From NCBI GenBank assembly GCA_040767965.1, contig JAXGNR010000013.1, forward strand, positions 1 through 48,900: a stretch of 48,900 nt of DNA, read 5' to 3'. The stretch's first letter is position 1. Each line of letters starts with the position of its first letter. Positions 1 through 46,979 of this stretch are shown in pieces. The position numbers were made by a program, and so were the translations under genes. The notes under the pieces were generated by a model. The model was not told where the DNA came from and made no database searches. It worked only from the letters and a program-made list of their open reading frames with translations. This DNA is from Atribacterota bacterium (GTDB lineage: Bacteria; Atribacterota; Phoenicimicrobiia; Phoenicimicrobiales; Stramentimicrobiaceae).

Positions 1-2137
1 TTTTTCTGATTCTATCCCTAAAGGTAGAAGTAATAACATTCTTGTTCTCCCTTATATCCAATATGTCCTTATCTATGGACATGACCTCTAAAATATCTTT
101 TTGTAGTCTGGTTATATTGACAAATATCAAGCATTTACCTATACCTTCATACTTTTCTTTTACAAATTTTTCGGTGTACTCTGCACTAATAACAGAATCA
201 GAGATTACAATAACAGGATGAACTCCTTCTTTTAAAAGTCTGCTATCTAACAGTGCATCTTTTAATCTATCTTCATCCTTACCCCATATAATATCTACTA
301 TTCTGTCCTCGTGAACATCAAGATAAGGTCCTCCTTCTACCTTGGTCCTGACACATTCAACGCCATTGATGGTATAGAAACTTTCTTCTGGGTAGTTTAT
401 TTCCAATGCCCTGCAGGCACCTGAAAGAACCCTTTTTACTTCCTCTTTTCTATTTTTGCTTCTTTCTTTTACTAACGCTTCAATCTCTTTGTTTTTTTCA
501 GTATCTGGAACGTAGCCAAAATCATCTTTTTCTACTCTATACCTTTTATCAAGGCGGATTAAATAGGCAAAGTTTGGTCCGATATATTCTGCTTCTTTTA
601 TATCTTCTTTTTCTATTTTTTCAAGGATGTATCCATAGATATATCTTGCTGATTCTTCAATATCATCCTTCGGATACAACATCCTGACCTGGTCTAAAAA
701 TGTTTCTTCTTCCTTCCCCACAATATACTCATTTTCTTTTACATTGAGAGAAAAAGTTTTTAGGCTTCTCAAAAGTATGCCTAAATCAAAACTGCTTCCG
801 AAATTATTAACAAATATATCTCCCGTTTCTCTTTTGTAGCCTTGAGAATTGAGGTAAACCGCCAAATCATCCTTTTCTAATTTCACACAGTAAAACTCTT
901 TGAATAACTTTTCGCCATCTTCTGCCTTTGCATCCATCATGGCATTTATTTCTTCCGGAGAATAGTTTGTTTTCTTCTGAGGGATTTGCTCTAAAAGAGC
1001 ATGCTTAAGAATCTGCCTGAACCTATCATCACACTGGATATAGTCAAAAGCAGGCTTATCAATCAAACTTTCTTTGAAACGGTTGCTGGAGTTTAATATG
1101 GTTTCAAAGATATGTCCCGTATCCTTTTTGACAGAACTATCCTCCATCTTTTGGTCTACGTTATGCATAATAACGTTAAACCAGCCAAAATTACCTCCTG
1201 CTATGGTATAGGCTGCTTCTATCAGCCCTTTTGGATAATCGGGTATCATACCCTTCTTGTTAAGATAAGCGATATAATCCGATATATCTGCAAAGGAATT
1301 CTGAAGCATTTCATACATTTCCGTTCTTCTGTCTAAAGCACCTATCCCCTGGATACTTCCTCCTATAACTGTAGAACACAAAAGAAGATAGGAAACCTCT
1401 GGATATTTCTTTCTCGGGTCTTCATGTTTTATAGCACTTGTAATTACCTGAATTGCTTCTCCATCTATTTTGTTTACCAGTTCCTTCTCTTTTTCAATTC
1501 CATACTTTGCAATTTCCCCCGCTGTTTCTAATTCATCACAGACAATAAGGAAATGTTCAATACCGAATTGCTTAACATACTCCATTCCTTTTCGGGTTAG
1601 TTCATCCAATTTTTCTTTGCTTATAACCAGTTCACTTAGATTTACCCTGTCTACTTGCAGTAAATCTCCAAGGATGCTTCTATCAAACCCTACAGGAGAT
1701 AAGGCATCTTGAATGGCTTCCATAATCTTTCCTTGAATGCTTCCATCGGATTCTCTGCTTAAATAGGACAGCGCTGTATAAATGCCGTAAGCCACCCAGT
1801 TATCTCCAATTAAATCAGGATGGCACATTTGGGAATACCTTATGTATAACGGGAGAACCTTATCTTCAAAATTATGTTTAAAAATTCTGACTTCTTTTTG
1901 CTCACCATCCTCATTAATAATCCACCCTTTATCCATTCCAAGGGGTTCCGAGATAAGTTCGAAACCGATACGGGATTTACCTACACCCCATTTTGAAATG
2001 AGTGGGAATATTGTTGCCATCCCTGCACTTTTCATAGTCTTCGTAAAGCCTTTAAAAATTTCATAAAACTCTTTCTGCCCTACCATCGGCTGATTTAAAG
2101 GAAAATCACTGGTACCGAAAGGAGCCCATATAGACAT
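1..2137 (-). CDS. Large P-loop ATPase, N-terminal part (continues across the window junction to 46976; about 1353 aa in total)
   Basis: Absent from the ORF track, translated by hand. RBS AGGAGG, then ATG at 2137 (or 2143): MSIWAPFGTSDFPLNQPMVGQKEFYEIF...LISKWGVGKSRIGFE (Walker A-like)...HFLIVCDELE (Walker B-like). The frame is open to position 1 and joins 48900 in frame (RDRIRK-I-RDHFNLK). Confidence 0.85.
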   Translation of the reverse strand, partial: MSIWAPFGTSDFPLNQPMVGQKEFYEIFKGFTKTMKSAGMATIFPLISKWGVGKSRIGFELISEPLGMDKGWIINEDGEQKEVRIFKHNFEDKVLPLYIRYSQMCHPDLIGDNWVAYGIYTALSYLSRESDGSIQGKIMEAIQDALSPVGFDRSILGDLLQVDRVNLSELVISKEKLDELTRKGMEYVKQFGIEHFLIVCDELETAGEIAKYGIEKEKELVNKIDGEAIQVITSAIKHEDPRKKYPEVSYLLLCSTVIGGSIQGIGALDRRTEMYEMLQNSFADISDYIAYLNKKGMIPDYPKGLIEAAYTIAGGNFGWFNVIMHNVDQKMEDSSVKKDTGHIFETILNSSNRFKESLIDKPAFDYIQCDDRFRQILKHALLEQIPQKKTNYSPEEINAMMDAKAEDGEKLFKEFYCVKLEKDDLAVYLNSQGYKRETGDIFVNNFGSSFDLGILLRSLKTFSLNVKENEYIVGKEEETFLDQVRMLYPKDDIEESARYIYGYILEKIEKEDIKEAEYIGPNFAYLIRLDKRYRVEKDDFGYVPDTEKNKEIEALVKERSKNRKEEVKRVLSGACRALEINYPEESFYTINGVECVRTKVEGGPYLDVHEDRIVDIIWGKDEDRLKDALLDSRLLKEGVHPVIVISDSVISAEYTEKFVKEKYEGIGKCLIFVNITRLQKDILEVMSIDKDILDIRENKNVITSTFRDRIRK

Positions 2138-2148
2138 ATCCATCCCTC

Positions 2149-3204
2149 CTAATCTCTAATCTCCAACTTAATTAATTGATAATCTTTTTTCCCCAGCAAG
2201 CCCCTGCCGTGCCTGGGCTGTCCCTGCTCATGGTCTTTAATTATAAACTTTCCTTTGTTTATACCTGTAACAAAGTAATGGTCAATCCATTGTTCTTCTG
2301 CCATGGTATTCTCACTGTCAACCTTCTTTTTCAATATGGAGCCTACTATTCCTATTGGGAAAAATCCCCTTGCATCTGAGTATTCCTCAATTAATTTATG
2401 TAGTATTTCTATATCATCCACATCGGCTTCATTTACTAAACTTTCATATACATCAATACCTACATCCTCTTTTATCTTATGTTTATCTAAGATGTACCTT
2501 CTATCTTCGCTTTCAACAATCCAACCTAAATAATCAAATAACAGCATTGGTATTTTCAAATAAGTACTCATAGAACCTAAAGAAGGATAATCTTTATTAA
2601 CGCCCCTAAATTCTATTTCTTCCCCATCTCCAATATCAAGTTCCCTTCTCCAGAAATCTCCTAATATCTTTGATTGATTCTCCTTCATTAAACTATTAAT
2701 GTTCATTTCATCGGGCTTGTTGCTGAAAATGTAAAACTTCTTGTCATTTAGGGTTATATAAGCCTTTGCGAAGTTTTCCATATATCCTTTTTCAAAATAG
2801 AGATATCCTCCATTTAGCATCGCATAAGCAATGGTCCTAATTCTTATGGAATACTTTAATAATTGACTTCCCAATACCTTTTCCCATTCTTCATTATGTT
2901 TAAATCTTTCTACCAGTTCATTGGCACCCTCTGTAAGTTCATATCCATCTTCAATTTCCTTTATAAAGTTACATCCAACAATAGTTAAAGAGTCTTTATC
3001 TTTTTCTGCACCAAACAGACCATATACCTCATCAGCATTAACAATTCTTCCGCTCTCATCAACCTTATAGCCCAGATAATCTCTGGCTAAATCTTTTTTA
3101 CTGCTGCAGGGTATTTTCTTTGGTAAGGATTTTAAAATTTCTGCCCATCTTTCTATATTGGATGCCTTTACCCAAAATCTGTCCGTACCTATTTTTATAA
3201 TCAT
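2149..3204 (-). CDS. Hypothetical protein (351 aa) in the defence operon
   Basis: Long ORF with a 4-bp ATGA overlap with the upstream gene; its stop codon overlaps the ATPase RBS. No motif recognised. Confidence 0.8.
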   Translation of the reverse strand: MIIKIGTDRFWVKASNIERWAEILKSLPKKIPCSSKKDLARDYLGYKVDESGRIVNADEVYGLFGAEKDKDSLTIVGCNFIKEIEDGYELTEGANELVERFKHNEEWEKVLGSQLLKYSIRIRTIAYAMLNGGYLYFEKGYMENFAKAYITLNDKKFYIFSNKPDEMNINSLMKENQSKILGDFWRRELDIGDGEEIEFRGVNKDYPSLGSMSTYLKIPMLLFDYLGWIVESEDRRYILDKHKIKEDVGIDVYESLVNEADVDDIEILHKLIEEYSDARGFFPIGIVGSILKKKVDSENTMAEEQWIDHYFVTGINKGKFIIKDHEQGQPRHGRGLLGKKDYQLIKLEIRD

Positions 3205-4265
3205 AATGTATTCCTCAACTTTTCTACATAGTCTTTAAGGGTGCTTTTAAACTTTCTGGAGCGGTTTTTTATAATAATATCCTTTGAGTATATCAAGTCT
3301 TTAAACTTTTCATTAAGGACATATTCCCCATCTTTAAAATCAATTTTCTGCTCATCCATCATATCAAAAACCACCTTGTCTACTTCAGGAGCCTTATCTG
3401 GGAAAAGGTACATATCATTTTCCATGCAAAACTCATATACAAAATCATTGAGCCTTCCTACCCTAACTTCCCTGCCCTTTGTATTGAAGATGTAAAAGTC
3501 TAAAGGCTGGGTTGCATAATAGTTGGTGTGGTCTGTAGGTCTTATGGATAATCCTTCAAAACCAGCGGTCTGGTATTCAAGGGCTACCATTGATAGTATT
3601 GTTAAAAAAGTTTTCCATGGGTAAGAAAGAACCTCCGCTACTTTCTCTTCCACTGGAAAATCCCTGTATTCATAGGGAGTAAAGGTGTATTTATTTTTAT
3701 CCTTTAACTTCGGGAGATTTACAGATGAAGTTATCCTCCTGCCCTGCACCCATATTTCATTAGGATTATTACCCATCGGTGATAACTCCACATCCTCTGT
3801 ATCCTCCGCCAACTGCATGGTTTTTAGTTTTCTAAGGATTGAAGGATATTGAGGATAACCATTAAATACAGCCTGATAAAAGGACTTTATTTCTTCCGTT
3901 TCTTCTATATCTCTATCCTTAATGTTTAACATAGTTTCAGCAAATTCAGGGATGCTGTCTATAAACTCATATAAGGCCTTACCGTCTCCCCTTTGACCTA
4001 TAATACAAGCCTCTTCGTATACTTTTTTCAGCAACCTATGTAACAGATGTGGATAGAAACAAAGAAGTGAAGATATAAAATCTTCCCTGCTTACCTTTCC
4101 GCTGAACTTAATCCATTTTTTTGTGATAATCAGCCTGTCCTCTATGAGCCTAATAAAGTTTTGGTCTATAAGGTATTGTAAATCAGTGTTATTTTTTATT
4201 TCTCCGTAGTCGTATAGGCTATTTAAACTTTTAACTAACTCATTTATATTTATCAAAGGTCTCAC
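3201..4265 (-). CDS. Hypothetical protein (354 aa) in the defence operon
   Basis: Long ORF, GTG start, 19 bp after the hsdS-like gene; overlaps the next gene. Confidence 0.8.
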   Translation of the reverse strand: MRPLININELVKSLNSLYDYGEIKNNTDLQYLIDQNFIRLIEDRLIITKKWIKFSGKVSREDFISSLLCFYPHLLHRLLKKVYEEACIIGQRGDGKALYEFIDSIPEFAETMLNIKDRDIEETEEIKSFYQAVFNGYPQYPSILRKLKTMQLAEDTEDVELSPMGNNPNEIWVQGRRITSSVNLPKLKDKNKYTFTPYEYRDFPVEEKVAEVLSYPWKTFLTILSMVALEYQTAGFEGLSIRPTDHTNYYATQPLDFYIFNTKGREVRVGRLNDFVYEFCMENDMYLFPDKAPEVDKVVFDMMDEQKIDFKDGEYVLNEKFKDLIYSKDIIIKNRSRKFKSTLKDYVEKLRNTL

Positions 4266-4284: not shown

Positions 4285-5658
4285 TTAACTATTCGCCTTC
4301 ACTTTTGACATATCAAAGTTACCCTCAATTAGGTCTTCTACATCTTGCTTGGCTTCTTCAATTAGTTTTTTTGATGTATAAATATTATCAATTATTCTTC
4401 TATAATTCTCTGTAATTTTATTAATTTGATTTTCAGAATACATTGGAATAAATACTTTTACAACATCATCTTCATTAATAGTAGGGTAAGTTGAACCTGC
4501 ACAATAACGTTCAAATTGAATTCCTACAAAATTTGTTCTTAATACAGCAGTTAAAAATTCTACTGGAACTTTACCCTTTGATTGTAAAACTGCAAACCCA
4601 CCTGTACATATAGCATTATCATATTCTTTTGTAACAATTGATATTGCCTTCCTCGTAGGTCTAACAAGAGATACCAAAATATCTCCTTCTTTCACTTGGT
4701 ATTTTGCGCTTGTTGGAATCTCTTCAGGACGCAACTCTTCTACTTCATCAATTGTACCAAAACTATTATTAATACTACTTATCTCGATATATTTATTTAT
4801 ATTTCCTGTTTGATATCTTATTTTAGTTATTCTTACATATTTTTCTAACCTTACCTTGTTGTTACCTAATTTTTCAATTGTCGATATATACTTCTTCTGG
4901 TAAAAATTTGGGTCAATTCTATCTTCTATATTAATTTCGTTAGTCCAATTTATTTTTGAATCATAAATATTATATACTTTATCAGTTTCTTCTTTTAGTA
5001 ACATGTCCACTTCTAGCAATATATCAATTTCCTTCTGTAAGGTTTTCGCTTCTTCTCTCAACTCTTCTGCTTTTCTAACCTTATCTCCTATGTATTTTTG
5101 GATTTCAGGAGATGGGATGGGAACTTGAAACTCTCTTATCTTACTAATTGTCAAAAATTTTCTAGCAGTATTTGCAATGTTCCGCTTTATTGAGTTTTGT
5201 CCAATATTAGAATTAAAATAGGCAAATGCATATTCTTTATCAATTATTTCATCTTTCAATTTTATTATTGAAATATTACCTGAAACATTCTTCCCTTTGT
5301 AGCAAGGAAAAACCGATGCAAAAGTACCACTTGAATTTCCCACTCTACTAACCAACAATTCATTTCCTTCTAAATGTGAGTTTTTAAATATATCTTTATG
5401 ACAAGTCTCTGAAATTGCCCTAAAATTACCTTCAATTCCATTTAAAGTTATATTTTCAATCATAATCATTTCAAAATCCGACTTATCAACAAATTCAGGA
5501 GCAGTATGTGGAGGGTCAAAAATCCTCCTTGAAATATTTCCTAGCGTTTCTATTCTAAACTGATTGATTTTTTTCAAAGATTTTATGTATTCAGGAGTAA
5601 AAAATTGAGCATCTATTCTATCATCTATAATTTCTGAATGGATGTATTCAAAATACAT
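4285..5658 (-). CDS. hsdS: HsdS-like restriction-modification specificity subunit (two TRDs)
   Basis: Two repeated TRD blocks starting RIDAQFF and RIDPNFY, a VPIPSPEIQKYI conserved helix, coiled-coil spacers and GDILVS/YPTINEDDV motifs. 1-bp overlap with the MTase gene. Confidence 0.85.
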   Translation of the reverse strand: MYFEYIHSEIIDDRIDAQFFTPEYIKSLKKINQFRIETLGNISRRIFDPPHTAPEFVDKSDFEMIMIENITLNGIEGNFRAISETCHKDIFKNSHLEGNELLVSRVGNSSGTFASVFPCYKGKNVSGNISIIKLKDEIIDKEYAFAYFNSNIGQNSIKRNIANTARKFLTISKIREFQVPIPSPEIQKYIGDKVRKAEELREEAKTLQKEIDILLEVDMLLKEETDKVYNIYDSKINWTNEINIEDRIDPNFYQKKYISTIEKLGNNKVRLEKYVRITKIRYQTGNINKYIEISSINNSFGTIDEVEELRPEEIPTSAKYQVKEGDILVSLVRPTRKAISIVTKEYDNAICTGGFAVLQSKGKVPVEFLTAVLRTNFVGIQFERYCAGSTYPTINEDDVVKVFIPMYSENQINKITENYRRIIDNIYTSKKLIEEAKQDVEDLIEGNFDMSKVKANS

Positions 5659-7544
5659 TATTGTTCCTCCTCTGGCATACCCTTCTTATAAGCCTCCACA
5701 ATCTTTAATAAGTCGTTGTGGTCATCGCCTAACTGTACCTCTACATTCTGTTTTACAGTAAATCCTACTTCATCTGCTACCGCCATAAATACTGGACCCT
5801 GTTTTTCTCCTGGATGTTCCTTCTTTTTTAAGTATAACAGCGAAGTCTTTGCACCTGCTCCTGACAAAGCAAAGGTTTCCTGCGGAAGGCTTATAACCGC
5901 TTTCAGTATTGCTTTGCCGCCTTCAAATTCACCTGTTACAGGGTTTTTCTTACCCATGATGTATTCACGTACATATTTATCCCCTGAATTTGAAAGAATT
6001 CCATCTGGTACAACTATCATGAGAAGTCCGCCTGGTTTTAGTAATTGAAGGTTTCTGTCAATAAATAACACTGCTGGGTCTACCGAATTTACTTCTTTCC
6101 ACTTACCTCTGCTATCTGGCTTTGACCCAAGAGATAAACCATAAGGACTCATTCTATTTTGCCCATCCTCATCTATGTCAGAAGAGTAATATTTGATAAT
6201 TTCAGCACCTTCTGGGTTTTCTACGGTTGTTTTACCTTTCTTAATTTTTTTTGAAACTCCGGTTTTGGAAAACGGAGGATTTGTCAGAATGGCATCAAAG
6301 GTTCCCGGCTCAAGCCTTGTATTCATCAATGAGTTTCTAGTTTGGAAAATAGGACACTTAGGCGCTCCATGCAATGCCATATTGATTCTTGCCTTGAGAA
6401 CCATTCCTGGAGCATTATCCGCACCAATAAAACAGTGTTCCTTCATTTGTTCAAAAAGTTCTTCATACTGCTTCTTGTCTCCTGTCAATTTGTTTAGAAG
6501 GTAGTGCTCTATCTTCTGAAGCATCTTTATTAAAAATCCTGCCGAACCACAGCACAAATCACCTATGCGGAGGGTAGGTATTCCTGTTTTGGGGTCTTTA
6601 CCTATTAGTTTTGCTGCCCCGTCTTTGGTAAGGTCGTGTAAAACAATTTCTGCTGCTGCTTCCGTTACCTGTCTTGGGGTAAGATAGATACCCATACCGC
6701 CTTTATTCTCAAACTTTCCACGAAGCAGTACATCAAAAACCCTGCCCAATACATCCCCTGTTAAATCCCTTAAAGTGGCAGGTCTCTCTACACCGTCAAT
6801 TTTTATCGGTCCTAAATCCTGGAGAGCCTTTAAAACAGCAATATAGATGTTTGGATTCTCCAGTTTTATATATTCATCTGCACTAAATATGTTTGCCTTT
6901 TCCCCATTATCCAAAATAGCAACATAATCTGCATGGTCTTTTATTTCTTTAAAGGCTTCCCTTATCTCCTGGACTGCCTTATCCTTATGTTTTTCTACAT
7001 ATTCGTATCTATATATTTCGTTAAATAGTTTCCCTGTTACATTACCCTTAGTTAATCTATATTCAGGATGATAAAGCCTGAAGGTCTCCAAAAATATAAG
7101 TTTGCTGAATTCATCGATTACATCATTGGAGTTATTTACATGGTCCTTCATTCCATAAATCATCTCATGAAGGCCATCGAAGGTCTCTTGCAGTTCTTGA
7201 TATTTTCTTAGTGACCATTTGTCCCTATCGGTAAGTTCTCTTTTCCATGCATATAAGTTGCTTTCATCTTCAAAAACCGATGGAATTTCGGAAATAGCCT
7301 TTTCTTCTGCTACAAGCACATAGGCATTGCTTGTGCCATTTGTAACCCAAACATATGTAGAAATAGGGTCAGTGACCATTGCTTCATAGGTTATGACTGT
7401 TACCACTTCTGGCTTTAACTGTTCTTCGTCTACTTTTTTTACATACACATATGTATCCTTATGACTGGCTACAAATGTAGTCTCATCAATATCCTTTATA
7501 GTTCCATAGCCAAGTTTTGTTATTTTGCTCTTTAATTCTTGCAT
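5658..7544 (-). CDS. hsdM: N6-adenine DNA methyltransferase (HsdM/N6_Mtase-like)
   Basis: GIYLTPRQV, motif I DLCCGSAGFL, motif IV ILTNPPF, LKPGG...IVVPDGILSN and AVISLPQETF. Confidence 0.92.
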   Translation of the reverse strand: MQELKSKITKLGYGTIKDIDETTFVASHKDTYVYVKKVDEEQLKPEVVTVITYEAMVTDPISTYVWVTNGTSNAYVLVAEEKAISEIPSVFEDESNLYAWKRELTDRDKWSLRKYQELQETFDGLHEMIYGMKDHVNNSNDVIDEFSKLIFLETFRLYHPEYRLTKGNVTGKLFNEIYRYEYVEKHKDKAVQEIREAFKEIKDHADYVAILDNGEKANIFSADEYIKLENPNIYIAVLKALQDLGPIKIDGVERPATLRDLTGDVLGRVFDVLLRGKFENKGGMGIYLTPRQVTEAAAEIVLHDLTKDGAAKLIGKDPKTGIPTLRIGDLCCGSAGFLIKMLQKIEHYLLNKLTGDKKQYEELFEQMKEHCFIGADNAPGMVLKARINMALHGAPKCPIFQTRNSLMNTRLEPGTFDAILTNPPFSKTGVSKKIKKGKTTVENPEGAEIIKYYSSDIDEDGQNRMSPYGLSLGSKPDSRGKWKEVNSVDPAVLFIDRNLQLLKPGGLLMIVVPDGILSNSGDKYVREYIMGKKNPVTGEFEGGKAILKAVISLPQETFALSGAGAKTSLLYLKKKEHPGEKQGPVFMAVADEVGFTVKQNVEVQLGDDHNDLLKIVEAYKKGMPEEEQ

Positions 7545-7556
7545 AGAAAGTCCTCC

Positions 7557-7925
7557 CTATTCTTTATTCCTTATTAAAACAGCCCCATTTGGGTGAAGTT
7601 TGTATTTTCCACTATGTTCTGCAATCTTTGATATCTCTTCCGCACTAATAGTAATATGATTTGGAACATACTCCATAATCTTTCTTATAGGCGCAACAGG
7701 TTTCCCATCCATTACTTTATCTACCACATCCAGTACGATAGAATTTATACTATTTCCTCCTGTGCTGTATAAATCCCCTGTCTTATTAATATTGCTATCC
7801 ATAAGAAATAATAGTTGTAATTGTGCTTTATTCCATTTCACTCCAGACTCTTTTAACCTTTGGTGCAATTCTTCAACAGACTTAGGGGTTTTCAGTTGTT
7901 CATATATTATTTCTACCATCAGCAT
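7557..7925 (-). CDS. Hypothetical protein (122 aa), possibly winged-helix
   Basis: RBS GGAGG and operonic spacing; the helical pattern is only suggestive of a wHTH. Confidence 0.7.
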   Translation of the reverse strand: MLMVEIIYEQLKTPKSVEELHQRLKESGVKWNKAQLQLLFLMDSNINKTGDLYSTGGNSINSIVLDVVDKVMDGKPVAPIRKIMEYVPNHITISAEEISKIAEHSGKYKLHPNGAVLIRNKE

Positions 7926-8179: not shown

Positions 8180-9463
8180 TTAAAATTTGTTTTGTAACAC
8201 ACTTAAATAATTCATCATTTTATCTACTATTTGTTCTTCCAAACTACTTTCCAGTCTTGGAATTTTGATTTTTTCAAAGTCATTTCTTTGAATGAGTTTA
8301 TATAGTGTCCCTTTAGTAAACATGTTTACCTGGTTTAGAATTATTGGTTGTTTAAATAAAAACAGAAGATAGTAAGGATTAATTCTTCTGGGGACCAAGT
8401 TATATAGAGCATCTGTTGTAACCAAACCGTCAAATTTTTCTGTAATAAGTGCTGTTGCATGTCCCTTAGTCCCTGTGGCACTGCCTCCTTTGGCAGTTAC
8501 TATTTCTCCCCTCCTCACAATATATCTCATCCGATTGCTTAAATTGCCGTAAAAATCCTCATGTGTTTCTTTTATAATTGAAAAGTTTGGGTCTATATCC
8601 GCTAACAAAAAATACTTTACTTTTTGATTCTCACTTATTTCGGGCTTATCTGCTTTTTTTATTTCTACAAGTTCTCCAAGTTCCTGCCATTTTACATCAT
8701 CAAAATTCTTGTGAATTACCCTATACAGTTCGGTGTAAAAGTTCGAGTAATACTCAGGGTCTAATCTGTGACTGTCAAGGTATTCTGTCACATAAAAGTG
8801 TTTAAGATTCTTTTCTTCACCTTTATAATCAAATACCCTGTAAAATATGTTTTCTGCAGACCTGTATAGTTTTTCAGCCTCTGCATATCCTGTAGAATCA
8901 TCAGAACAATCTTCCTGATATGTATCAAAGTTCTCAGGAATTAGTAAATTCTCAACATCCTCCACAAAAATTTTATTTAAAATCCCTATTTTAATAGAGT
9001 TTAACAGCATTTGTCCTATGCTGCTTTTTAAAAAACTATATAGCCTTATACCTTTATCCCTATCCCTTAATGTTATTTTAATAATATCCGATGTTACTAC
9101 ACATCCTTCTAATGCTTCATTTACATAAATTACCTGTCCTGATTTGCCCGAGGCTGTAATCAATATATCTCCACTATTTATAATATCTTTTTCTTTTACT
9201 ACTTCAGGCTGTATTACTTTAAGTTCATTAATATATATAATTTCATTTCTTATGTCCCCAGGAGCAATAATCTTATATCCGTTTTTATTTGTATAATACT
9301 CTTTCTTAACCCGAATCCCACTTGTAATTTCTTTACAAATATTACTTAATGCTATAAGGGGATGTCCCTGTAGTAATCGCTGTATTTCATATTGCTGTAC
9401 TACATAATCATAAGAAATTCGCTTTCCATCCATTTTATCTGGCGTAATAAACATGCAATTCAC
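8180..9463 (-). CDS. hsdS: Second HsdS-like specificity subunit
   Basis: Two TRD-like halves (LSNICKEITSG...SGDILITASG; HRLDPEYY...LGELVEI...FEKIKIPRLESSLEEQI). Confidence 0.75.
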   Translation of the reverse strand: MNCMFITPDKMDGKRISYDYVVQQYEIQRLLQGHPLIALSNICKEITSGIRVKKEYYTNKNGYKIIAPGDIRNEIIYINELKVIQPEVVKEKDIINSGDILITASGKSGQVIYVNEALEGCVVTSDIIKITLRDRDKGIRLYSFLKSSIGQMLLNSIKIGILNKIFVEDVENLLIPENFDTYQEDCSDDSTGYAEAEKLYRSAENIFYRVFDYKGEEKNLKHFYVTEYLDSHRLDPEYYSNFYTELYRVIHKNFDDVKWQELGELVEIKKADKPEISENQKVKYFLLADIDPNFSIIKETHEDFYGNLSNRMRYIVRRGEIVTAKGGSATGTKGHATALITEKFDGLVTTDALYNLVPRRINPYYLLFLFKQPIILNQVNMFTKGTLYKLIQRNDFEKIKIPRLESSLEEQIVDKMMNYLSVLQNKF

Positions 9464-17427: not shown

Positions 17428-19434
17428 ATGATAAATTTCTACGAAAGGATGATGGCAATGAATATCAATGAAATTATAGAAATCAAAATCAAATATGAAA
17501 TGGGACAACTGTATAATTACCTAAATGAAATAGAGAATACTTATATATCATCTCAGATAACTGGGGAAAATTTAGTTAAATTTTATAACCTGAATGCAAC
17601 TAATCAATATGGACACTGGCGATGTGTATGTCCTTTTCACCAAGGCGCATCAAATAGAACTGAGTTTATATTTAACGATAACGAAAAAAGTTTTACATGC
17701 TTTGCCTGCAAAACCAGTGGAACCTACTTAAAGTTTATTGCATTAATGCAGGGATTTACTTCAAATGCTCTTAATGAAGCCAAAATATTTGCTGCAGTAC
17801 ATTTTGCTCATTTGAACCTTGCTTTTAATTCAATAAGTGATTATAGAGAAAAAATAAAGCAGAAAGTCATAAAAAGATATGAGGCAACAAAAAGTTTAGA
17901 CATTAAGGATTATTATGATATCTCAATATTACCCGATAAATCTGCTTTACCGGTCAATACAGTAACGAGAAAACCAGATAATTCTTCTGTGAATAACAAA
18001 AATGAATTTCCTATTGAATCATCTTCGAAGAAAGATGCTGAACATAATATTTATATACAAGCGACAGAAGACGCAAAAAACAGTATATTGCTGCATGAAA
18101 TCCTGTTAAATAAAGAACAGTTCAATTCAATTGATAAATTGCAGGATTTCATGCATAAAAAGTATTATATTTCTGGCGGTATTATAGAAAAATATGGACT
18201 TATTTATTTTGACAGACAAAGCCAAAGTAAACTTACTCATCCTAATTTTTATGGACTTAGTGATAGAGTAATATTCCCATTCAAAGACCATAACTCAGGC
18301 ATAATAGTAGGGCTTCATTGCAGACACGTCTTATACAAAAAAGAAGAAGGCAAAAGTAAACAATGGGGGAAGTATTCAAATATTCTTGATTATGGTGAAC
18401 TCAAAACTAAAGACAATGGATATCAGTATTACGGTATAAAATCTTTTTCCATAGGCCAGTTTTTGTTTAATTTATTTGAAATTAAAGACAACAAAGTAAC
18501 CAAATTATGGATTACTGAAGGTGTTGCCGACTGCCTGAAACTAATATCCTTAGGATATATTAGTGCAGTTTCCCCCGGTCAATCTAACCTCACTGACGAA
18601 CAGATAAATCTTTTAAAACACTATTTTGGCTGTGAAATTGAAGTACTGCTCTTTTTTGATAATGATAATAATAACATAGGACAGTGCAATAGCATCCAAA
18701 TAGCCTATAAGTTATGGAAAAGCGGATTTAGAAATATAAAAATTGTCCGCACCTTTCCTGGACAAGGAAAGGATTTGACGGATGTTGCTGTTGCAATCCA
18801 GAATGATAGCCAACTGCGGATGCTGATTGACTTGTGGGAAAAGAATGCTTATGCTTTCTCGCCTGCACCACAGGAACATATAAATATACTTTTGAACTCT
18901 GGATATTATACTGATTCCGAAGTATATTCAATAGACCCTAGAAATATAGAAGATGAAATCGCAAAAGTTAAACTTCTTAAAAAACTAAGCAAACATCCCG
19001 ACTTGGATATCAAAGAATTAAAAGGGATAAAAGATATTAATATTACATCAATCACTGAACCTGATATGAATAATGCTAAAAACAATACAAATAATTGTAA
19101 ATTTGAATTAAATAGAACAGACCCTCTACCTCCCTCTCCTCGTAGTGAAGCAGAGTTATGTGAAACGGATTCTTCCCAGAATCCTGAATGCTGTTTTATG
19201 AACATTTCAGATGCCCAGTTGTATCGGCTTAAGCAGAAATTTGATATGGATACAATTAAAGAAATTGATGAAAAATGTACAAAAGAACAAATTATTGATA
19301 TCGTGGGTAAGATAATAAGTGGCATTCCGTTTGAACTTGATGAATATCTTTCTCCCGAAAAATGTACACCACCTATTTTAGTAGACGAAAATTTAAATCC
19401 AATCATAGTTGAACCTGAAGATATACCATTTTAG
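17428..19434 (+). CDS. DnaG-like primase (CHC2 zinc finger + TOPRIM) with a long C-terminal extension
   Basis: CPFH...FTCFAC zinc finger; RVIFP; ITEGVADC, FFDND and GKDLTD TOPRIM motifs; ends EPEDIPF. Confidence 0.88.
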   Translation: MINFYERMMAMNINEIIEIKIKYEMGQLYNYLNEIENTYISSQITGENLVKFYNLNATNQYGHWRCVCPFHQGASNRTEFIFNDNEKSFTCFACKTSGTYLKFIALMQGFTSNALNEAKIFAAVHFAHLNLAFNSISDYREKIKQKVIKRYEATKSLDIKDYYDISILPDKSALPVNTVTRKPDNSSVNNKNEFPIESSSKKDAEHNIYIQATEDAKNSILLHEILLNKEQFNSIDKLQDFMHKKYYISGGIIEKYGLIYFDRQSQSKLTHPNFYGLSDRVIFPFKDHNSGIIVGLHCRHVLYKKEEGKSKQWGKYSNILDYGELKTKDNGYQYYGIKSFSIGQFLFNLFEIKDNKVTKLWITEGVADCLKLISLGYISAVSPGQSNLTDEQINLLKHYFGCEIEVLLFFDNDNNNIGQCNSIQIAYKLWKSGFRNIKIVRTFPGQGKDLTDVAVAIQNDSQLRMLIDLWEKNAYAFSPAPQEHINILLNSGYYTDSEVYSIDPRNIEDEIAKVKLLKKLSKHPDLDIKELKGIKDINITSITEPDMNNAKNNTNNCKFELNRTDPLPPSPRSEAELCETDSSQNPECCFMNISDAQLYRLKQKFDMDTIKEIDEKCTKEQIIDIVGKIISGIPFELDEYLSPEKCTPPILVDENLNPIIVEPEDIPF

Positions 19435-20840: not shown

Positions 20841-21751
20841 TCACCTTCTTATTTCCTGCTCCAGCAAAATCTTATAGCCCTTAGCATTTGCAAACTGGTC
20901 AAGGTTTTCAATATACCTTATCTTATCCGATGATTCTATATATTTTCTTAACATCATACCCCCACCACCAGCAACTATTGTCGGGTTCCTGAATTCAAAA
21001 CCGTATTCTAAAATCTTTGTCAGCAAATTTTCTACATATTCCTTTGCTTTTATTTCTATCATTTTATTTATATCTGCATCAAATAGAACTGGCTGCTTAC
21101 CTAAGATAATATCCTGTATCTGCTTTTCTGTCAGATTAATATTTATTTTTAATAATTCCTGCTGTATGGATGCAACCAATGTGATTGTACCGTTCGGTAG
21201 TGAATAGCAGGATGCTGTATTAATTATCCGTTTTCTACTATAAAAAAATCTGTAGTATAGCCACCAATGTCAATCACATTTACCAAAGCAATATCTTTAT
21301 AATCTTTAAAAATATTAATAAATGCAGCATAACCCTGGGGATAGACTCTGCAATCTTTAATGCTGATTGTATAGTCTATTCCTAAATAGTTGAAATTAAT
21401 ATTATTACACAAAAAATACTCTCTGAATTTTGCTTTCATTTTACCGTAGTGAATGATAGGAAGCCCCACACCTAAAAATACATCTGCTTTCTGTTCTATT
21501 CCTGCCTTGTTAATTGCATCTGCTATTGCAGCCAAAGATATTATAAAAGCATCCTGAGTCTGAGTCTTATCTAATTGAACGCTCGACCTGTTGTTTCCTA
21601 TGCTGTAATAAATACCTTGATAAATAAGCAGATTTTGTTTTGTAATAGGCTCTACATCAGATTTTGTAAAGCCCGACTGACAACTAAAACCCTCACTGCT
21701 TTTGGTATAAGCATTTCCATTGTCTAATCCTAAGATAATTTTATTCTCCAT
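20841..21751 (-). pseudogene. parM: ParM/StbA actin-like partition ATPase, frameshifted at about 21225
   Basis: LGLDNGNAYTK, GVGLP, VYPQG and IDIGGYTTD lie in the first ORF; AGGGG and QFANAKGY lie in the second. Adding one base in GGATAA restores ENGIINTASCYSLPNGTITLVASIQ. Confidence 0.85.
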
Positions 21752-39690: not shown

Positions 39691-39714
39691 TTCCTTTAAA
39701 CTCAGTATCTATGA

Positions 39715-40158: not shown

Positions 40159-40183
40159 CTTAAATCCTCCTATTTATTATGAG

Positions 40184-41227: not shown

Positions 41228-42688
41228 CTAATAACTAAGATAATTCAAATACTTATTATATTCTTCCAGCCTGCTCCTAATTAGCATGTCGTTCGGGTCT
41301 AAACGTATGGCATAATTAAAATAAGCCCTTGCCTTTCTAAAGTCTTTTCTCTGGTCATATGCATGACCAAGTTTTTTTACTATATAAAGCATTCCGGGTG
41401 TCTTTTTATTAATATCTTCCAGAATTTCAATTGATTTTTCCTGTTCATTATTTAAGCCATAAGCACATGCTAGTTTATATCTATAGTTCAAGTCATCTGG
41501 ATTCCTTGATACCAATTTTTCATAAACTTTGACTGCTTCCTCATATCTTTTTAGTTCAAAAAATAATTTTCCTTTTAAGTATAGAAGGTTATCTTCTAAA
41601 GCCTCTCTTCTGACATCCTCTATCTCTTTAATATCTATACCGTTTAATACATCCATGCTTTCAAAATATCTTCCCTGCTGAAAATATGTATAAGCAATGT
41701 GATATAATATGTCAGCAGATTTATTTCCATTCTCATACTCCGTTTTTAGCAGTAATTCTGCCTTATCAAATTCTTTATTCTTATAGTATCGGATTACTCT
41801 TTCTATCCAATCAGTATCCTCATATCTTACTTCAACCCGCTCATTGTAAGAAATAATATTGTTATTTCCTTTTCTTAATACCTCTTCGAAATCCCTTTTT
41901 ACTTCCCTTACATTCTGATACCTTTCTTCAGGGTTTCTTTTAAGTAATTTCATGATAATTTCTTCAACCGATTCAGGTATATTATCATTTATCTCCCTTG
42001 GTTTTGGATAAGGCATATTATTTATAAGTTGATTAGCAGTTTCATGAGGAGTCCTGCCAGTTAAAAACTTGTATAAAAGCACTCCCAATGCATATATATC
42101 CGAGTTAAGATACCTGCGGTTTGACCCAGCCACTTCTGGAGCCATATAAGCCCAGGTGCCTCCACCATCAATTGTCTTTATAAATAAATCTTCTATCAAT
42201 TTACTTGTACCAAAATCCGTTATTTTCACTATCTTCCCATCCGTTAGAATATTCTGAGGCTTTATATCCCCGTGGCAAATATGCTTTGAATGTATATATT
42301 CTATACCATCCAATATTTGAAAAAACAAGTTGTATATTTCATCAAATGTTCTTGGACTCTTAAATCCCGTTTCACATAACTCGTCTGATAGTTTATGCCC
42401 ATTAAAGTACTCCATTTCTATCAGAAAAACCCCATCTACCCGCCCCATCCAATATATAAAAATAACATTCGGGTGATGACTCCTGATGAATTCTTTTCCT
42501 TCCGATAAGGTGTTGTCTCCCCGTTCCTGGTCCTTGGGTATTTTGAGCGCCACTGTTTGCCTATTATCAAGGTTTACCGCTTTCCATACATAACCAAAGG
42601 AACCTTCATCAATAAACTCTTTCAATAAATATTTATCTCCTATACTCATATCTACTTGCGGATGAAAATTAACTGCTTTTTTCTTCAT
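41228..42688 (-). CDS. Hanks-type Ser/Thr kinase with C-terminal TPR repeats
   Basis: EGSFGYVW, VALK, HGDIKPQN, DFG, YMAPE and DIYALG, followed by TPR helices. Start moved to MKKKA. Confidence 0.93.
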   Translation of the reverse strand: MKKKAVNFHPQVDMSIGDKYLLKEFIDEGSFGYVWKAVNLDNRQTVALKIPKDQERGDNTLSEGKEFIRSHHPNVIFIYWMGRVDGVFLIEMEYFNGHKLSDELCETGFKSPRTFDEIYNLFFQILDGIEYIHSKHICHGDIKPQNILTDGKIVKITDFGTSKLIEDLFIKTIDGGGTWAYMAPEVAGSNRRYLNSDIYALGVLLYKFLTGRTPHETANQLINNMPYPKPREINDNIPESVEEIIMKLLKRNPEERYQNVREVKRDFEEVLRKGNNNIISYNERVEVRYEDTDWIERVIRYYKNKEFDKAELLLKTEYENGNKSADILYHIAYTYFQQGRYFESMDVLNGIDIKEIEDVRREALEDNLLYLKGKLFFELKRYEEAVKVYEKLVSRNPDDLNYRYKLACAYGLNNEQEKSIEILEDINKKTPGMLYIVKKLGHAYDQRKDFRKARAYFNYAIRLDPNDMLIRSRLEEYNKYLNYLSY

Positions 42689-42690
42689 AA

Positions 42691-43332
42691 TTAACCTACC
42701 TCTACCCATTGATTTAGTGTCAAATTATCAATATTGCCTGAAGCAACACAGCGATAAACCAGATAGGTCGTTTTCAAAGCATTTATTCCTTGTACATAGG
42801 TACCATCACTTCTTTTAAAGCCATTATCCAGTATTGATATATATTCTTCAATATCCCCTGGATTTTCCCCAGCATAACTCCAATATACAAACAATATAAT
42901 AGGTACATTCCCGCCCAACTGGTGATAAGCAAGAAGCAGATTTTGTATCTTTTCCTTGATTTTTAAATCTTTTCGTCTATTCTTTTCATATCTTTCAAAT
43001 TCACAAATCAGTATAGGACTATTATCCTCTTTCGAATACCAAATAGAATCTGGTCTTACTTCGTTAACTTTTATTTCGTAACTGGCCTGGCTCTCTGCAA
43101 CCATTTGTCCATAGTGGCTTCTTTCAGAATATGGAAACACAGGACATTCAGAAAGGGATGTAACCCCGTCAACAAATCTTCCTATTGCGGTTATATAATT
43201 AAGACCTACAGTATGGACAGTTTCTGAATAGTCCCTTATTCCGAATTTTGTCATCATAGGAAACATTTCGTTTCTAATTTTTCCTTCTTTAAATTCTTTT
43301 TTTATGAAATCAATGATTGTTTCCTTATTCAT
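42691..43332 (-). CDS. Putative PD-(D/E)xK-like nuclease
   Basis: SECPV...VRPDSIW...ILICEFER...KIQNL. Start moved to MNKET, overlapping the herA stop. Confidence 0.55.
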   Translation of the reverse strand: MNKETIIDFIKKEFKEGKIRNEMFPMMTKFGIRDYSETVHTVGLNYITAIGRFVDGVTSLSECPVFPYSERSHYGQMVAESQASYEIKVNEVRPDSIWYSKEDNSPILICEFERYEKNRRKDLKIKEKIQNLLLAYHQLGGNVPIILFVYWSYAGENPGDIEEYISILDNGFKRSDGTYVQGINALKTTYLVYRCVASGNIDNLTLNQWVEVG

Positions 43333-45019
43333 TGAATACGCCCCATTCTTTGATAACTTCAGGGGACTCTCCGCCATGTATCAACGCTTTTGTTCCTATT
43401 TTCACAAGCAGCGGCGCTGGTATCGACCTCCCGTTTATCAACGCTTCACCCGTAGATAAGGATGGCAGTTCTTCAATATCAGATGTTGAAAACATATCCG
43501 ACGTTTTTGCAATAAACCTCTGGTCGTCTGGATTCTTTAGTCTCATTGTAATGATTGTATTACATTGCGACGTAACATCAGGGTCCAGTTTTGACGGCCT
43601 TTGAGAAATAATCGCAAAGCCAGTACCAAACTTTCTTCCTTCCGCCGCAATCTTCTTAATAATTTTTTTAGATATGCTCGGAATGCCTGCTGGTGCAAAA
43701 TTATGCCCCTCTTCATAAACAAGGAAGCATGGCCTTATTTGCCTTTTTTTATCTGATGCTGCCCTCATAATCTCACTGGATATCAACGCTGTTATAATTT
43801 GTTTAGCATCATCAGATAAACCTTGCAAGTCTATTATTACAAGCCTTCCCACGTTATTTCCCTTTTCTCCGACCATCTTATAAATATCTGTCGGTTCACC
43901 AATAGCCCTTGTATAAAAACTCTTTGCTTCATTGATTACTCGGGTTAATTTCATGGAAGCCACTGCTGCGCTTCTATTATTCAGGGCTTTTGCCTCACCT
44001 TCCGTCAAATTGTCCCAATTCTTTAGTTCCTCAAGCCCCTGTTCGTCAGAAAGGAGATATGTTAAATCCTGAATATCCCGAGGCGGATTATTATATTTTG
44101 CTTTCCAATACCTGATTGCAACATCCAATACTCTTTCCTGGGCTTCTGTCAAACCTGGAAGAATAGAAGATAAATCATCCATGTCAAATCTATCGAATTG
44201 AAGCGCCAGGTGATGATTTTTTGCGCTGTATTTATAATCAAAGGAATCCATTTGTGGAGTATATACTTTAATTCCTCCACCAGCCTTTATTAATTTTAAT
44301 AATTGTTCCTGAATTCTCTGGATACTCTTCTTTTCCCTCTCATCCTCAATAAAATCAAGATTGTTATTAAAATGTATCTCTCCCTTTTCAAATGCTTTTC
44401 CATATTCTCCATGGACATCAAATACAACTACTGTGCCATTCATCTCTGCTACAAGTCTTTCAATAATTCTGCCCACAGTATATGATTTCCCTGAACCTGT
44501 CATTGCCAGCACAGCCAAATGTTCTGTAACCAGTTTGTTTACATCAAGATAAACAGGGACTATATTACTTCCCTTGTCGTATCCAATCAAATTACCTATG
44601 TTAATGCTTGTATTCTCATCAAACTTATAAAACTTTGACAAAAACTCATAGTCAACACCATATACCTTTTCCCCTGGGTTGAGGGGTCTCCTGGGTATTT
44701 TTATCTGCCCATAGTTATCCCTGTATCCCACCAGTTCTATGGTCCCAAATAAAGTCTCCCCAGTAACTTGTGCACCTGGTAGTATCTCAAGAGATGACAG
44801 CCCCTCCCCTATATTGGAGTTATATAGAATATTGCTTCTGGATATGGATACAATTCTCCCGAGAACATATGTATCCCCATCTTCTTCCGATTCTCTATGC
44901 TTGATTTTTACAAACTCTCCTCTTTTAGCAGAAAAACTGTTTTCGAGAGCAATCTTTAAATCATTAGGATTGCCTGTATTGCCGATAAGTTTGCCTATAT
45001 ATTTATCCACTGAAATCAC
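43325..45019 (-). CDS. herA: HerA-family ATPase/DNA translocase
   Basis: N-terminal HAS-barrel-like region, HLAVLAMTGSGKS, FDVHGEY, EEGHNFAP and EGRKFG...SQRPS. Confidence 0.92.
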   Translation of the reverse strand: MISVDKYIGKLIGNTGNPNDLKIALENSFSAKRGEFVKIKHRESEEDGDTYVLGRIVSISRSNILYNSNIGEGLSSLEILPGAQVTGETLFGTIELVGYRDNYGQIKIPRRPLNPGEKVYGVDYEFLSKFYKFDENTSINIGNLIGYDKGSNIVPVYLDVNKLVTEHLAVLAMTGSGKSYTVGRIIERLVAEMNGTVVVFDVHGEYGKAFEKGEIHFNNNLDFIEDEREKKSIQRIQEQLLKLIKAGGGIKVYTPQMDSFDYKYSAKNHHLALQFDRFDMDDLSSILPGLTEAQERVLDVAIRYWKAKYNNPPRDIQDLTYLLSDEQGLEELKNWDNLTEGEAKALNNRSAAVASMKLTRVINEAKSFYTRAIGEPTDIYKMVGEKGNNVGRLVIIDLQGLSDDAKQIITALISSEIMRAASDKKRQIRPCFLVYEEGHNFAPAGIPSISKKIIKKIAAEGRKFGTGFAIISQRPSKLDPDVTSQCNTIITMRLKNPDDQRFIAKTSDMFSTSDIEELPSLSTGEALINGRSIPAPLLVKIGTKALIHGGESPEVIKEWGVFNE

Positions 45020-45028: not shown

Positions 45029-46189
45029 TTAATCCTCAAACACATCCAAATCTTCTTTCCAAATGCTCTCCAATGCCTCACTTTGGAGCATCTCCCTGGC
45101 TTGTGTTTTATAGTATTCTAAAATCACATTTTTCCCATTGTTTGTGGCCTCGACTGGCTTTAAAGCATATTTGGCATACCATAATGGCAGTGGCAGTGCT
45201 TTTTTTTGGTCAAATGCAATCAGGGATATAATTTGAGAAGCCAGTTTATCCAGCATTTCAGATGACCAATCTTTTACGCCCCCTAATACTTCTACCAAAA
45301 GTGGCGGTGTAGTGTTTCCCGCCTTAATATGCATGCCTATTAATCCCACATCTCGTAAAGTTTCAGGCTCCAGCCTGTTATCCTTATTTAAGCCATCATA
45401 TTGAAATGCTGCTGTCCTTGTTCTTTTTACAAGAATACCTGTTAGCAGCCTTTTAATACCTACATCTTGAATTTTGGGCATTAGTTCTTCCATCTTTTTA
45501 ATTATACTATTGTCCACATCATCTGGAATATAGACTAAATTATCCTCAGTAAGTGCATATATAATTGCACCAAACCTTTTTGTTCCTACTGATGCGATTT
45601 TAATTCCATTTTCATTAAACGGGTATACCATATCCTTATATTTATCCCAGAAAAACTTTATGGTCTCCCTGCATTTATCATAAACTTTTATAGTATCCTT
45701 TCTATCTTCAAGGGGAGCATCCGAACGCTCAAGTACTAAAGGTACATCAACCAAAACGAGTTCAGGCTTTTCATCATCTTCCATTAAGTCAGACAGGAGT
45801 TTATAGACATTGATAATATCTATAAACTTCAACTTTTTCTGATTATCCAAGTCATCTATCTCATCTACATCAACGATACTTTCCTGTCTTGTTTTATAAA
45901 TAGAACCTTCATCTATAAGGATGTCCTGTCTTACTGACCCAGCAACATATAACATCCCGCCAAATGCACTGGAAGTCCTATTGGTTGCCGCAATACCTGA
46001 TGCCTTGATAGTGAGAGGGGCTATTAATTCTATATTTCTAACCACCCCACTTTCCTTTAGGGCAGGGGCTATTTTATCAATAAACCGCATTTTCGACGAT
46101 AACCTGGAAACTGTGGCTGGAAGACCTAATTGAATATTAGCCACTATGCTTTGGGATATTGGAGTACTATTTTCCTTAAATCCATCCAT
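45029..46189 (-). CDS. nurA: NurA-like protein (probably catalytically degenerate)
   Basis: Lies directly upstream of herA; LVLVDVPL and LPLPLWYA resemble the NurA llDGsL and YPxxLxxAH motifs. Confidence 0.6.
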   Translation of the reverse strand: MDGFKENSTPISQSIVANIQLGLPATVSRLSSKMRFIDKIAPALKESGVVRNIELIAPLTIKASGIAATNRTSSAFGGMLYVAGSVRQDILIDEGSIYKTRQESIVDVDEIDDLDNQKKLKFIDIINVYKLLSDLMEDDEKPELVLVDVPLVLERSDAPLEDRKDTIKVYDKCRETIKFFWDKYKDMVYPFNENGIKIASVGTKRFGAIIYALTEDNLVYIPDDVDNSIIKKMEELMPKIQDVGIKRLLTGILVKRTRTAAFQYDGLNKDNRLEPETLRDVGLIGMHIKAGNTTPPLLVEVLGGVKDWSSEMLDKLASQIISLIAFDQKKALPLPLWYAKYALKPVEATNNGKNVILEYYKTQAREMLQSEALESIWKEDLDVFED

Positions 46190-46979
46190 CTTCTTTTTCT
46201 CCCCTTTGTTTTACAGCATTGATAAAGGATTTCAATTTCCTTTCTTTAACTACAGTCATACCCTTGCTCAACAATCCATTCTCGTTAATATATTGATTTG
46301 CTATCAGGTCTTGATATCCTTGCTTAGCAGTTTCTTCATCAATCAAAACTCCAAAATATTTATGAATTATACTTGACAGACACTGACTTAAGTCAATACC
46401 AGCCCCTGTCAGGATAATCAAATAAATATGAATATCATCTAATATAAAATCTTTTGTTTCTACCAAGGATTCTTGTTTAACATCCTCAGCAAGGAGCAGG
46501 GAATTAAAAAGAGCCTTTAATTTATCTTCTAACTGAATCATTTTATAGTCCAATAACGGTAGTGTGACTACCGTTATCAGACCTGTTCCTGTATTCTTCC
46601 TGTAATGAATCCCAAATTTCTTCCCATTTTGTTGAAATATAACATCTTTTACAGTAGTATCAATCAAAAAGCCTATCGGAATTCCCTCATAATTATCATC
46701 TGTTCTATTTATTCTTATATCTACCGATGAGTGAAGAATTTCCTTTAAATTCATTTCGGTCCAGGAAGGTGTAAGTATTAACTGGTTTTTATTATCCTCC
46801 AGCCATGCATTAAGTAAGTCTAAGTTTTGTTTGCCCAGTTTACTTAATAGAATCCCAGGCAGAACTAAAACCCCAGTTTGCAGTGAATTCATCTGGGCTA
46901 CCTGGCAGTCATAAAAATCCTTAAGAAGCCTGTATTCTGTTCTATTCTTATATTCATCTAATATTTGAATAGCCATCAC
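46176..46979 (-). CDS. Hypothetical protein (267 aa) in the defence operon
   Basis: Overlaps both neighbouring genes. Confidence 0.8.
   Translation of the reverse strand: MMAIQILDEYKNRTEYRLLKDFYDCQVAQMNSLQTGVLVLPGILLSKLGKQNLDLLNAWLEDNKNQLILTPSWTEMNLKEILHSSVDIRINRTDDNYEGIPIGFLIDTTVKDVIFQQNGKKFGIHYRKNTGTGLITVVTLPLLDYKMIQLEDKLKALFNSLLLAEDVKQESLVETKDFILDDIHIYLIILTGAGIDLSQCLSSIIHKYFGVLIDEETAKQGYQDLIANQYINENGLLSKGMTVVKERKLKSFINAVKQRGEKEDGWI

Follow-up and report, generated by a model that had tools for sequence, protein, structure and literature searches.

HerA and NurA form a translocase–nuclease pair, and the ATPases ORC/Cdc6, TnsC and MuB bind DNA as ATP-dependent oligomers and then recruit a partner enzyme. 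Three described systems bear comparison with the locus analysed here. MADS (methylation-associated defence system, mad1–8) is R-M-like and combines a kinase of the Ser/Thr type with an N6-methyltransferase, a specificity (S) subunit and a HerA-like ATPase, itself paired with a nuclease; HsdR is absent (Maestri et al., bioRxiv 10.1101/2023.03.30.534895). BREX and Pgl are methylation-based multi-gene systems with PglX, in which the BrxC or PglY protein exceeds 1200 amino acids (aa) and carries a long C-terminal extension behind an N-terminal ORC-like AAA+ domain (PMC12839542). In the HerA/FtsK–Orc/CDC6 'capture' neighbourhoods, proposed to intercept invading DNA, these ATPases occur with nucleases and winged-helix proteins (Nucleic Acids Res 2024, PMC10853773). 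The locus of interest lies on a 48,900-bp stretch of DNA (the window), which is an entire contig (C13) of a 30-contig, 2.33-Mb assembly assigned to Atribacterota. The two ends of this contig encode the two parts of a single 1353-aa ATPase, named BIG in this report, which belongs to an 11-gene operon. We consider it likely that the contig is a circular plasmid-like replicon and that BIG is the centre of a methylation-guided, anti-phage-like operon.

The operon has all the components listed above for MADS, likewise without HsdR, and further includes BIG, which is ORC-like, and four additional family-less genes. With the capture neighbourhoods it shares an Orc/CDC6-type AAA+ protein (BIG) and HerA, the two being linked in every one of the 32 long metagenome loci described below; to these it adds a methyltransferase–S pair, a kinase and a NurA-like gene. 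Its large ATPase resembles BrxC and PglY in size and layout, whereas methylation is assigned to a type I-like methyltransferase with a separate S subunit instead of PglX. The operon is MADS- and BREX-like but a member of neither. Nothing describing it was found in the literature searched, and the defence-system libraries contained no match for it as a system.

Read on the minus strand, positions 2137 to 1 followed by 48900 to 46976 form one frame of 4062 nt (2137 + 1925), i.e. 1353 codons and a stop. The N-terminal part (1..2137, minus strand) probably starts with an ATG at 2137, with an AGGAGG 7 nt upstream (2150–2145) and homologues that begin MSIW, and comprises codons 1–712 and the first base of codon 713. 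The C-terminal part (46976..48900, minus strand) supplies the last two bases of that codon (48900 and 48899) and codons 714–1353, followed by a TGA stop at 46978–46976. The split codon is ATC (base 1 plus bases 48900 and 48899) and encodes Ile713. Considered separately, the left-end frame (2143..2, minus strand) runs for 714 aa without a stop up to the contig end, and the right-end frame (48898..46976, minus strand) for 640 aa before the TGA. A first-pass annotation, made from the letters of the window, had proposed that an ATPase of about 1353 aa was hidden across the junction, in a stop-free frame of 2137 + 1925 = 4062 nt with a junction codon A+TC; both the arithmetic and the protein hold, the gene being on the minus strand.

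Relatives of BIG were searched for among longer proteins, which gave 211 matches at E ≤ 0.001, 120 of which were listed; most of these 120 are 1340–1360 aa long. The closest among the matches listed, P0003, is itself a 1353-aa protein and is 97% identical to BIG. Its residues 1–712 align with residues 3–714 of the left half (694 of 712 identical, no gaps) and its residues 714–1353 with residues 1–640 of the right half (623 of 640 identical, no gaps). The sole residue between the two, residue 713, is an isoleucine within RDRIRKIRDHFNLK, the same amino acid as that encoded by the A+TC codon. It follows from this gapless match on both sides that no base was lost or gained at the junction; extra sequence in a homologue near residue 713, which the first-pass annotation had named as evidence against the join, was not found in P0003.

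The continuity of the gene is also apparent in other genomes. BIG is uninterrupted in 28 of the 33 related loci from named genomes, the remaining five being cut by contig ends. When the window was rotated, single megablast alignments spanned the junction in seven loci, for example over 12,088 bp at 94.8% identity in locus L001 and over 8,990 bp at 96.8% in locus L006. The latter was used as a stand-in for the window in a check of read runs, its junction-equivalent site being 12137/12138: a contig bridges this site in four out of four metagenome runs (four studies), and no indel was listed there. Of the 40 variant letters listed in these runs 28 correspond to the window allele and 12 differ, and there are 57 further differences; because of these mismatches the runs hold close variants of the island and not certainly this very molecule. 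The in-frame join of the two ends is far beyond chance.

A terminal overlap of 10–299 nt was looked for at the ends of the contig and none was found; neither end shares its sequence with any other contig of the assembly. Since the window is a whole contig without terminal overlap, an overlap-trimmed circle is the simplest reading, and a gene whose two pieces meet at the contig ends to the exact base would be best explained by a cyclic assembly path from which the overlap was trimmed. The contig is probably a plasmid-like circle (48,900 bp) that the assembler linearised inside BIG. The closed circle announced by the first-pass annotation is thus kept as far as the abutting ends are concerned, and as a probable reading with respect to circularity itself. 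The edges of the island that carries the operon bound a backbone at about 10.6–38.2 kb. Here a primase-like gene (CHC2 zinc finger and Toprim; 17428..19434, plus strand) is a candidate replication gene of the circle, and a ParM/actin-like partition gene is found at 20841..21751 (minus strand). A phage identity of the circle was considered and rejected, as no phage structural protein (PHROG) was found among the open reading frames (ORFs) of the window that were scanned; an integrase was not found among them either.

Several observations weigh against this picture. The ParM-like gene is split in two ORFs (21751–21224 and 21179–20841), which cover positions 2–190 and 212–323 of the phrog_691 profile, as a result of either a frameshift or a sequencing error. 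Comparison with PLSDB (megablast of 12000–36000 and tblastn of the N-terminal half of BIG) gave no plasmid match. GC skew (plus strand, 2-kb bins) is negative or near zero throughout, with no origin-like switch, a profile that fits the near-uniform minus-strand coding of the window. The contigs that bridge the junction-equivalent site stem from close-variant runs and not from the assembly's own sample. Finally, the same operon is present on large chromosomal records, among them a complete chromosome of 5.09 Mb and a contig of 4.69 Mb, so that plasmid carriage is not a property of the system. The abutting ends might instead be an assembly artefact or reflect a non-plasmid state, such as a tandem duplication, a circularly permuted or terminally redundant linear element, or an excised integrated island. 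This would accord with the absence of a plasmid database match, with the split partition gene, with the chromosomal location of the island in other genomes and with an ImmA/IrrE–Xre regulator pair on the backbone (34498–35681), which is typical of integrated elements. We nevertheless regard such an origin as unlikely: an exact, overlap-free junction is what would be expected from a trimmed cyclic path, the scanned ORFs include neither integrase nor phage structural gene, and both ends are unique to this contig.

The host of the probable plasmid is a separate matter. Among named hits, the chromosomal RpoB fragment of the assembly is nearest to Atribacterota (92% identity), with Bacillota records at 75% or less. 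The primase of the backbone shares 84% identity with a Thermoanaerobacterium protein, and the island DNA is 92–97% identical to loci of Herbinix, Tepidanaerobacter, Thermoanaerobacteraceae and others. The tetranucleotide correlation of the backbone with the chromosome is 0.969, versus 0.994 ± 0.002 for chromosomal pieces (minimum 0.986, n = 28), and the BIG gene was present in none of 40 relatives. The backbone segment 14001–24000 was detected, at 0.75–0.94 of sampled words, in 14 runs from 11 studies of digesters, sludge, wastewater and soil. The outlying composition, the absence of the gene from the relatives and the recurrence of the backbone also count in favour of a plasmid. That a plasmid of Bacillota was binned with an Atribacterota genome is no less likely than a cross-phylum plasmid, and the contig may be mis-binned. 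The 92–97% DNA identity of the operon in distantly related thermophilic anaerobes points to its recent horizontal spread.

In the BIG protein, residues W50, G51, G53, K54, S55 and R56 of the Walker A motif (KWGVGKS) and E202 and E204 of the Walker B region (LIVCDE) are invariant in an alignment of 20 sequences, which bears out the Walker A-like SKWGVGKS and Walker B-like LIVCDE noticed in the first pass. A profile of the first 540 residues was compared with 1.84 billion representatives and retrieved 139 clusters at E ≤ 0.001; full-length members of the family are about 1270–1645 aa long. Two of them, P0140 and P0143 (1644–1645 aa), have an N-terminal extension of ~317 residues before the ATPase domain, for which no Pfam match was found. 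Sub-threshold matches to the STAND-related Pfam models AAA_16, ATPase_2 and nSTAND3 occur in distant family members; AAA_16 was matched by 7 of 18 of these, at 18.9–31.1 bits, all below the 32.6 cut-off. The window's own BIG has no AAA_16, ATPase_2 or AAA_22 match, and Atlas features point to 'archaeal ATPase' clusters.

The model of the N-terminal half has a predicted local distance difference test score (pLDDT) of 82.9. Its best VIA-align matches are ORC/Cdc6 proteins (Z 11.3–12.0, 244–258 residues aligned; e.g. 7jgr_G, Z 12.0 with 244 residues aligned at a root mean square deviation (rmsd) of 4.4, and 1fnn_A, Z 11.6 with 257 residues), followed by TnsC (Z 10.2–11.0; 7ufi_1, Z 11.0 with 257 residues) and MuB (Z 9.0–9.2). 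Foldseek returned 13 matches at E ≤ 0.001, with TnsC at 3.6e-5 and BrxC at 4.2e-4. In the model, the N-terminus of BIG folds as an AAA+ ATPase of the ORC/Cdc6–TnsC–MuB kind. The resemblance to these three is one of fold: the best matches fall on residues 1–360 of BIG (Z 10–12, 230–270 residues aligned), whereas identity is ~10–15%, BIG has roughly 1000 extra residues, and the genomic context is different. In the models, the N-terminal AAA+ domain is followed by middle alpha/beta domains, with an alpha/beta region at residues 587–676, and by a helical C-terminal half of roughly 640 residues. The C-half model (pLDDT 90.9) consists mostly of long helices, in agreement with the long helical C-terminus suggested at first reading.

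It could be argued that the operon is a new BREX subtype, with BIG as its divergent BrxC/PglY. No solved protein overlaps the model over a longer stretch than the N-terminal part of Acinetobacter BrxC, with 341–345 residues over model positions 1–525, at Z 9.2–9.4 (9zll_A, Z 9.4, rmsd 6.0, 341 aligned; 9zdx_A, Z 9.2, 345 aligned); size and layout are similar, the kinase of the operon weakly matches PglW models, and one source calls a homologue 'BREX system P-...'. On the other hand, BrxC is outscored by both ORC/Cdc6 and TnsC, the PADLOC models for BrxC and PglY were matched by none of 20 full-length family members (E ≤ 0.01), NCBIfam had none for the halves, and the profile search with its 139 representative clusters never ran into the BrxC family. 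Moreover, no match to PglZ, PglX, BrxA, BrxB or BrxL was found among the operon ORFs or 51 homologues of its family-less genes. A BREX subtype is, in our opinion, quite improbable. The first-pass annotation had compared BIG in size and layout with BrxC/PglY-type or STAND-like ATPases, without assigning a family; this was reasonable in view of the AAA+ fold, the long overlap with BrxC and the sub-threshold STAND-related matches, but by sequence BIG is not a member of the BrxC/PglY family.

The operon, all on the minus strand, begins with g122, a small conserved gene without a family (7557..7925). This is followed by a type I-like N6-adenine DNA methyltransferase (5658..7544; PADLOC MTase_I PDLC03024, 1424 bits), a type I-like S subunit (4285..5658) and two conserved genes without a family, g354 (3201..4265) and g351 (2149..3204). 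The product of g351 has an invariant C-terminal GQPRHGRG motif, and its TAG stop overlaps the ribosome-binding site of BIG. On the other side of BIG lie g267 (46176..46979), with hints of a winged helix at the C-terminus of its product (E 0.014 and 2e-4), and g386 (45029..46189), a NurA-like putative nuclease directly upstream of a HerA-type ATPase gene (43325..45019; HAS barrel 3e-14 and DUF87 1.1e-47). The last two genes are g228 (42691..43377), conserved and without a family, and a Ser/Thr protein kinase with C-terminal TPR repeats (41228..42709). The NurA call for g386 comes from PF09376, found in 30 of 30 named Atlas clusters with a score up to 0.98; its weak points are that only 12–34% of members carry PF09376 and that the recognition value is 2273 against a usual bar of 2300. 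In g228, the pattern RPD...EFE...K resembles the PD-(D/E)xK motif, and the product may be a nuclease of the restriction-endonuclease fold. Seven of the 11 genes, BIG included, are without a Pfam family: no consistent one was found for g122, g354, g351, g267, g228 or g386 in the window and 51 homologues, and PDB sequence profile searches with g354, g351, g267, g228 and g386 gave nothing below E 0.01.

All 11 genes were found in this order (g122, methyltransferase, S, g354, g351, BIG, g267, g386, HerA, g228, kinase-TPR) in 22 of the 33 genome loci, which are the complete Bacillota loci, the rest being cut by contig ends. A second, conserved S-subunit gene is present upstream of the unit in most of the 33 (8180..9463, minus strand, in the window). 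In a divergent clade, whose BIG proteins are about 1410–1440 aa and come from many phyla, BIG, g386, HerA, g228 and the kinase occur together in every one of the 32 metagenome loci that are 20 kb or longer; 30 of these have the methyltransferase and 29 the S subunit. Altogether, the operon recurs in more than 100 loci from several phyla. In four loci (L006 16003–18105, L008 15977–18121, L014 15996–16904 and L028 16015–17074) there is an extra 0.9–2.1 kb between the NurA-like gene and HerA. Nothing separates the pair in the other loci, so the additional DNA may represent a mobile element or a single inserted gene.

The S subunit is hypervariable between otherwise near-identical islands. In four of them (L001–L004, at about 6450–7850) the S proteins are 30–36% identical, with neighbouring genes at 92–98%, and the S subunit of L006 is 69% identical to that of the window (4285–5658). 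A specificity determinant would be expected to vary in this way under diversifying pressure, and the variability looks like swapping of target-recognition domains. The repeats between the two S genes that a shufflon needs were not found.

These data also bear on the notion that BIG and HerA serve the replicon itself, as an ORC-like initiator and a DNA pump in plasmid replication or segregation. ORC/Cdc6 and HerA/FtsK folds do act in replication and segregation, and the BIG gene sits on a plasmid-like circle. Nevertheless, the same operon is found in chromosomes, and the backbone has a separate primase and ParM-like gene. The constant link to a methyltransferase–S pair, with an S subunit that differs strongly from one near-identical island to the next, argues against such a role as well, as do the bSEFIR/TIR and HNH genes that flank the operon; we think it most improbable.

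In our preferred reading, that of a methylation-guided operon centred on BIG, g267 would be a partner of the large ATPase. The GTG start of g267 overlaps the TGA stop of BIG (GTGA). Complex prediction with the C-terminal half of BIG and g267 gave a score of 0.70 (0.69–0.71 between runs) versus 0.00 for the best control; the mark used is reached by 116 of 157 solved complexes and by 2 of 215 mismatched pairs. Agreement between runs extends to 100% of contacts, and g267 has a pLDDT of 81. The predicted interface brings together residues 466–507 of the BIG C-half and two regions of g267, R13–Y16 and T139–D144, in which R13, T14, E15 and Y16 as well as T139–D144 are invariant. Thus, g267 is predicted to bind the C-terminal helices of BIG.

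How far the operon can be equated with published systems was assessed gene by gene. That it is canonical MADS (mad1–8) is suggested by weak matches to MAD2, MAD5, MAD6 and MAD8 models and by the shared logic of methyltransferase, S subunit, kinase and HerA-like ATPase without HsdR. Yet scores for the NCBIfam MADS equivalogs are far below their cut-offs (MAD2 118.9 vs 720, MAD5 128.5 vs 400, MAD6 136.6 vs 460), and generic HerA models describe the HerA gene better than mad8 does (1.7e-59 vs 5.5e-28). The models found no MAD7 in the operon, nor does it contain a MAD3/MAD4 pair (OLD-like ATPase and Toprim), the only mad3-like ORF (28776–29540) being outside the unit. Gene order and number differ too. 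In the detection model of the MADS authors, the MAD6 kinase, MAD7 and MAD8 are mandatory (bioRxiv 10.1101/2023.03.30.534895). We therefore consider identity with canonical MADS very unlikely. In P. aeruginosa, 10 of 444 islands carry what the same preprint calls a 'MADS-like' system, with 11 genes (madl1–11) that include an N6-methyltransferase (Maestri et al., bioRxiv 10.1101/2023.03.30.534895). The present operon may be this system, the comparison being one of gene count and methyltransferase only, and this is the main caveat on its novelty. With respect to the capture neighbourhoods, their Orc/CDC6 protein has an inactive restriction-endonuclease domain inserted between the AAA+ core and a C-terminal winged helix, and they also include an active restriction endonuclease and a wHTH protein (PMC10853773); the hints in this direction here are the g228 motif and the winged-helix matches of g267.

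We propose the following mechanism on the grounds of how ATPases of this clade behave and of the HerA–NurA pairing, both described at the outset. The methyltransferase–S pair would mark host DNA, with the variable S subunit determining which sequence is marked. BIG would assemble on unmarked DNA in an ATP-dependent manner, as a matchmaker or loader; this role is assigned by analogy and is not a result. Through its C-terminal helices and the adaptor g267, it would then recruit the HerA–NurA-like motor, and possibly g228, to unmodified incoming DNA, and the kinase would regulate the response. Gene continuity, fold class, conservation of the operon and variability of its S subunit are established by the data; the steps just given are proposed.

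This account has its own counterweights. The halves of BIG had no match in NCBIfam (E ≤ 0.01), PADLOC (E ≤ 1) or PHROGs (E ≤ 0.001), and Pfam at E ≤ 1 gave only two chance-level matches, both on the right half (E 0.09 and 0.17). When PDB sequences were searched with a profile of the 20 aligned sequences, a single chance-level match was returned, to ATP synthase subunit d (E 0.031). Together with the profile search described above, these results indicate a family that is small, isolated in sequence and unnamed. The fold matches at Z 10–12 span only about 250 of the 714 residues of the N-terminal half. For the C-terminal half, Foldseek against PDB found nothing at E ≤ 0.001 (best E 0.26), and VIA-align against 48,161 chains found generic helical bundles only (Z ≤ 8.9, the best being 88 residues of a designed helical protein). 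The score of the BIG–g267 complex is the model's own confidence, obtained from alignments that we made ourselves. To judge by its motif, g228 may be a nuclease, and a defence function of the operon is inferred.

Beyond this, we offer a broader proposal, which we hold only tentatively. BIG may represent an undescribed family of giant ORC/TnsC-like matchmaker ATPases which, with g267, load a DNA-destroying HerA–NurA-like motor onto DNA left unmarked by the type I-like methyltransferase–S pair. The operon would then be a distinct class of methylation-guided immunity, apart from BREX and MADS, that is present in many phyla and travels between thermophilic anaerobes on such circles.

Other genes of the window, all on the minus strand, were also noted. 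Beside the operon, the block 38803–41158 encodes a bSEFIR/TIR-domain protein (PADLOC bSEFIR, 4.5e-54), a DUF3908 protein, an ADP-ribosylglycohydrolase (4.6e-73) and a DUF7685/7686/7713 protein; parts of it travel with the island in L001–L003 and L006. Further defence-type or signalling genes are found on the backbone: an HNH endonuclease is encoded at 9681–10490, an orphan DndB/DGQHR-like gene, without other dnd genes, at 13924–15081, and a GGDEF–Spo0E-like fusion at 15253–16143.

The circle itself is ordinary; what makes the locus interesting is the rejoined gene together with its operon. Where the arbitrary start of a circular contig falls inside a gene, that gene escapes ordinary annotation, and here it was the largest gene of the element that was hidden in this way. 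The operon would belong to the methylation-associated, multi-ATPase kind of defence, uncharacterised in the libraries and literature searched. If it is an immune system, it would join methylation-based self-marking, ORC/TnsC-type DNA-loading ATPases and HerA–NurA DNA processing, which have so far been studied apart, and would be a tractable candidate for experiments.

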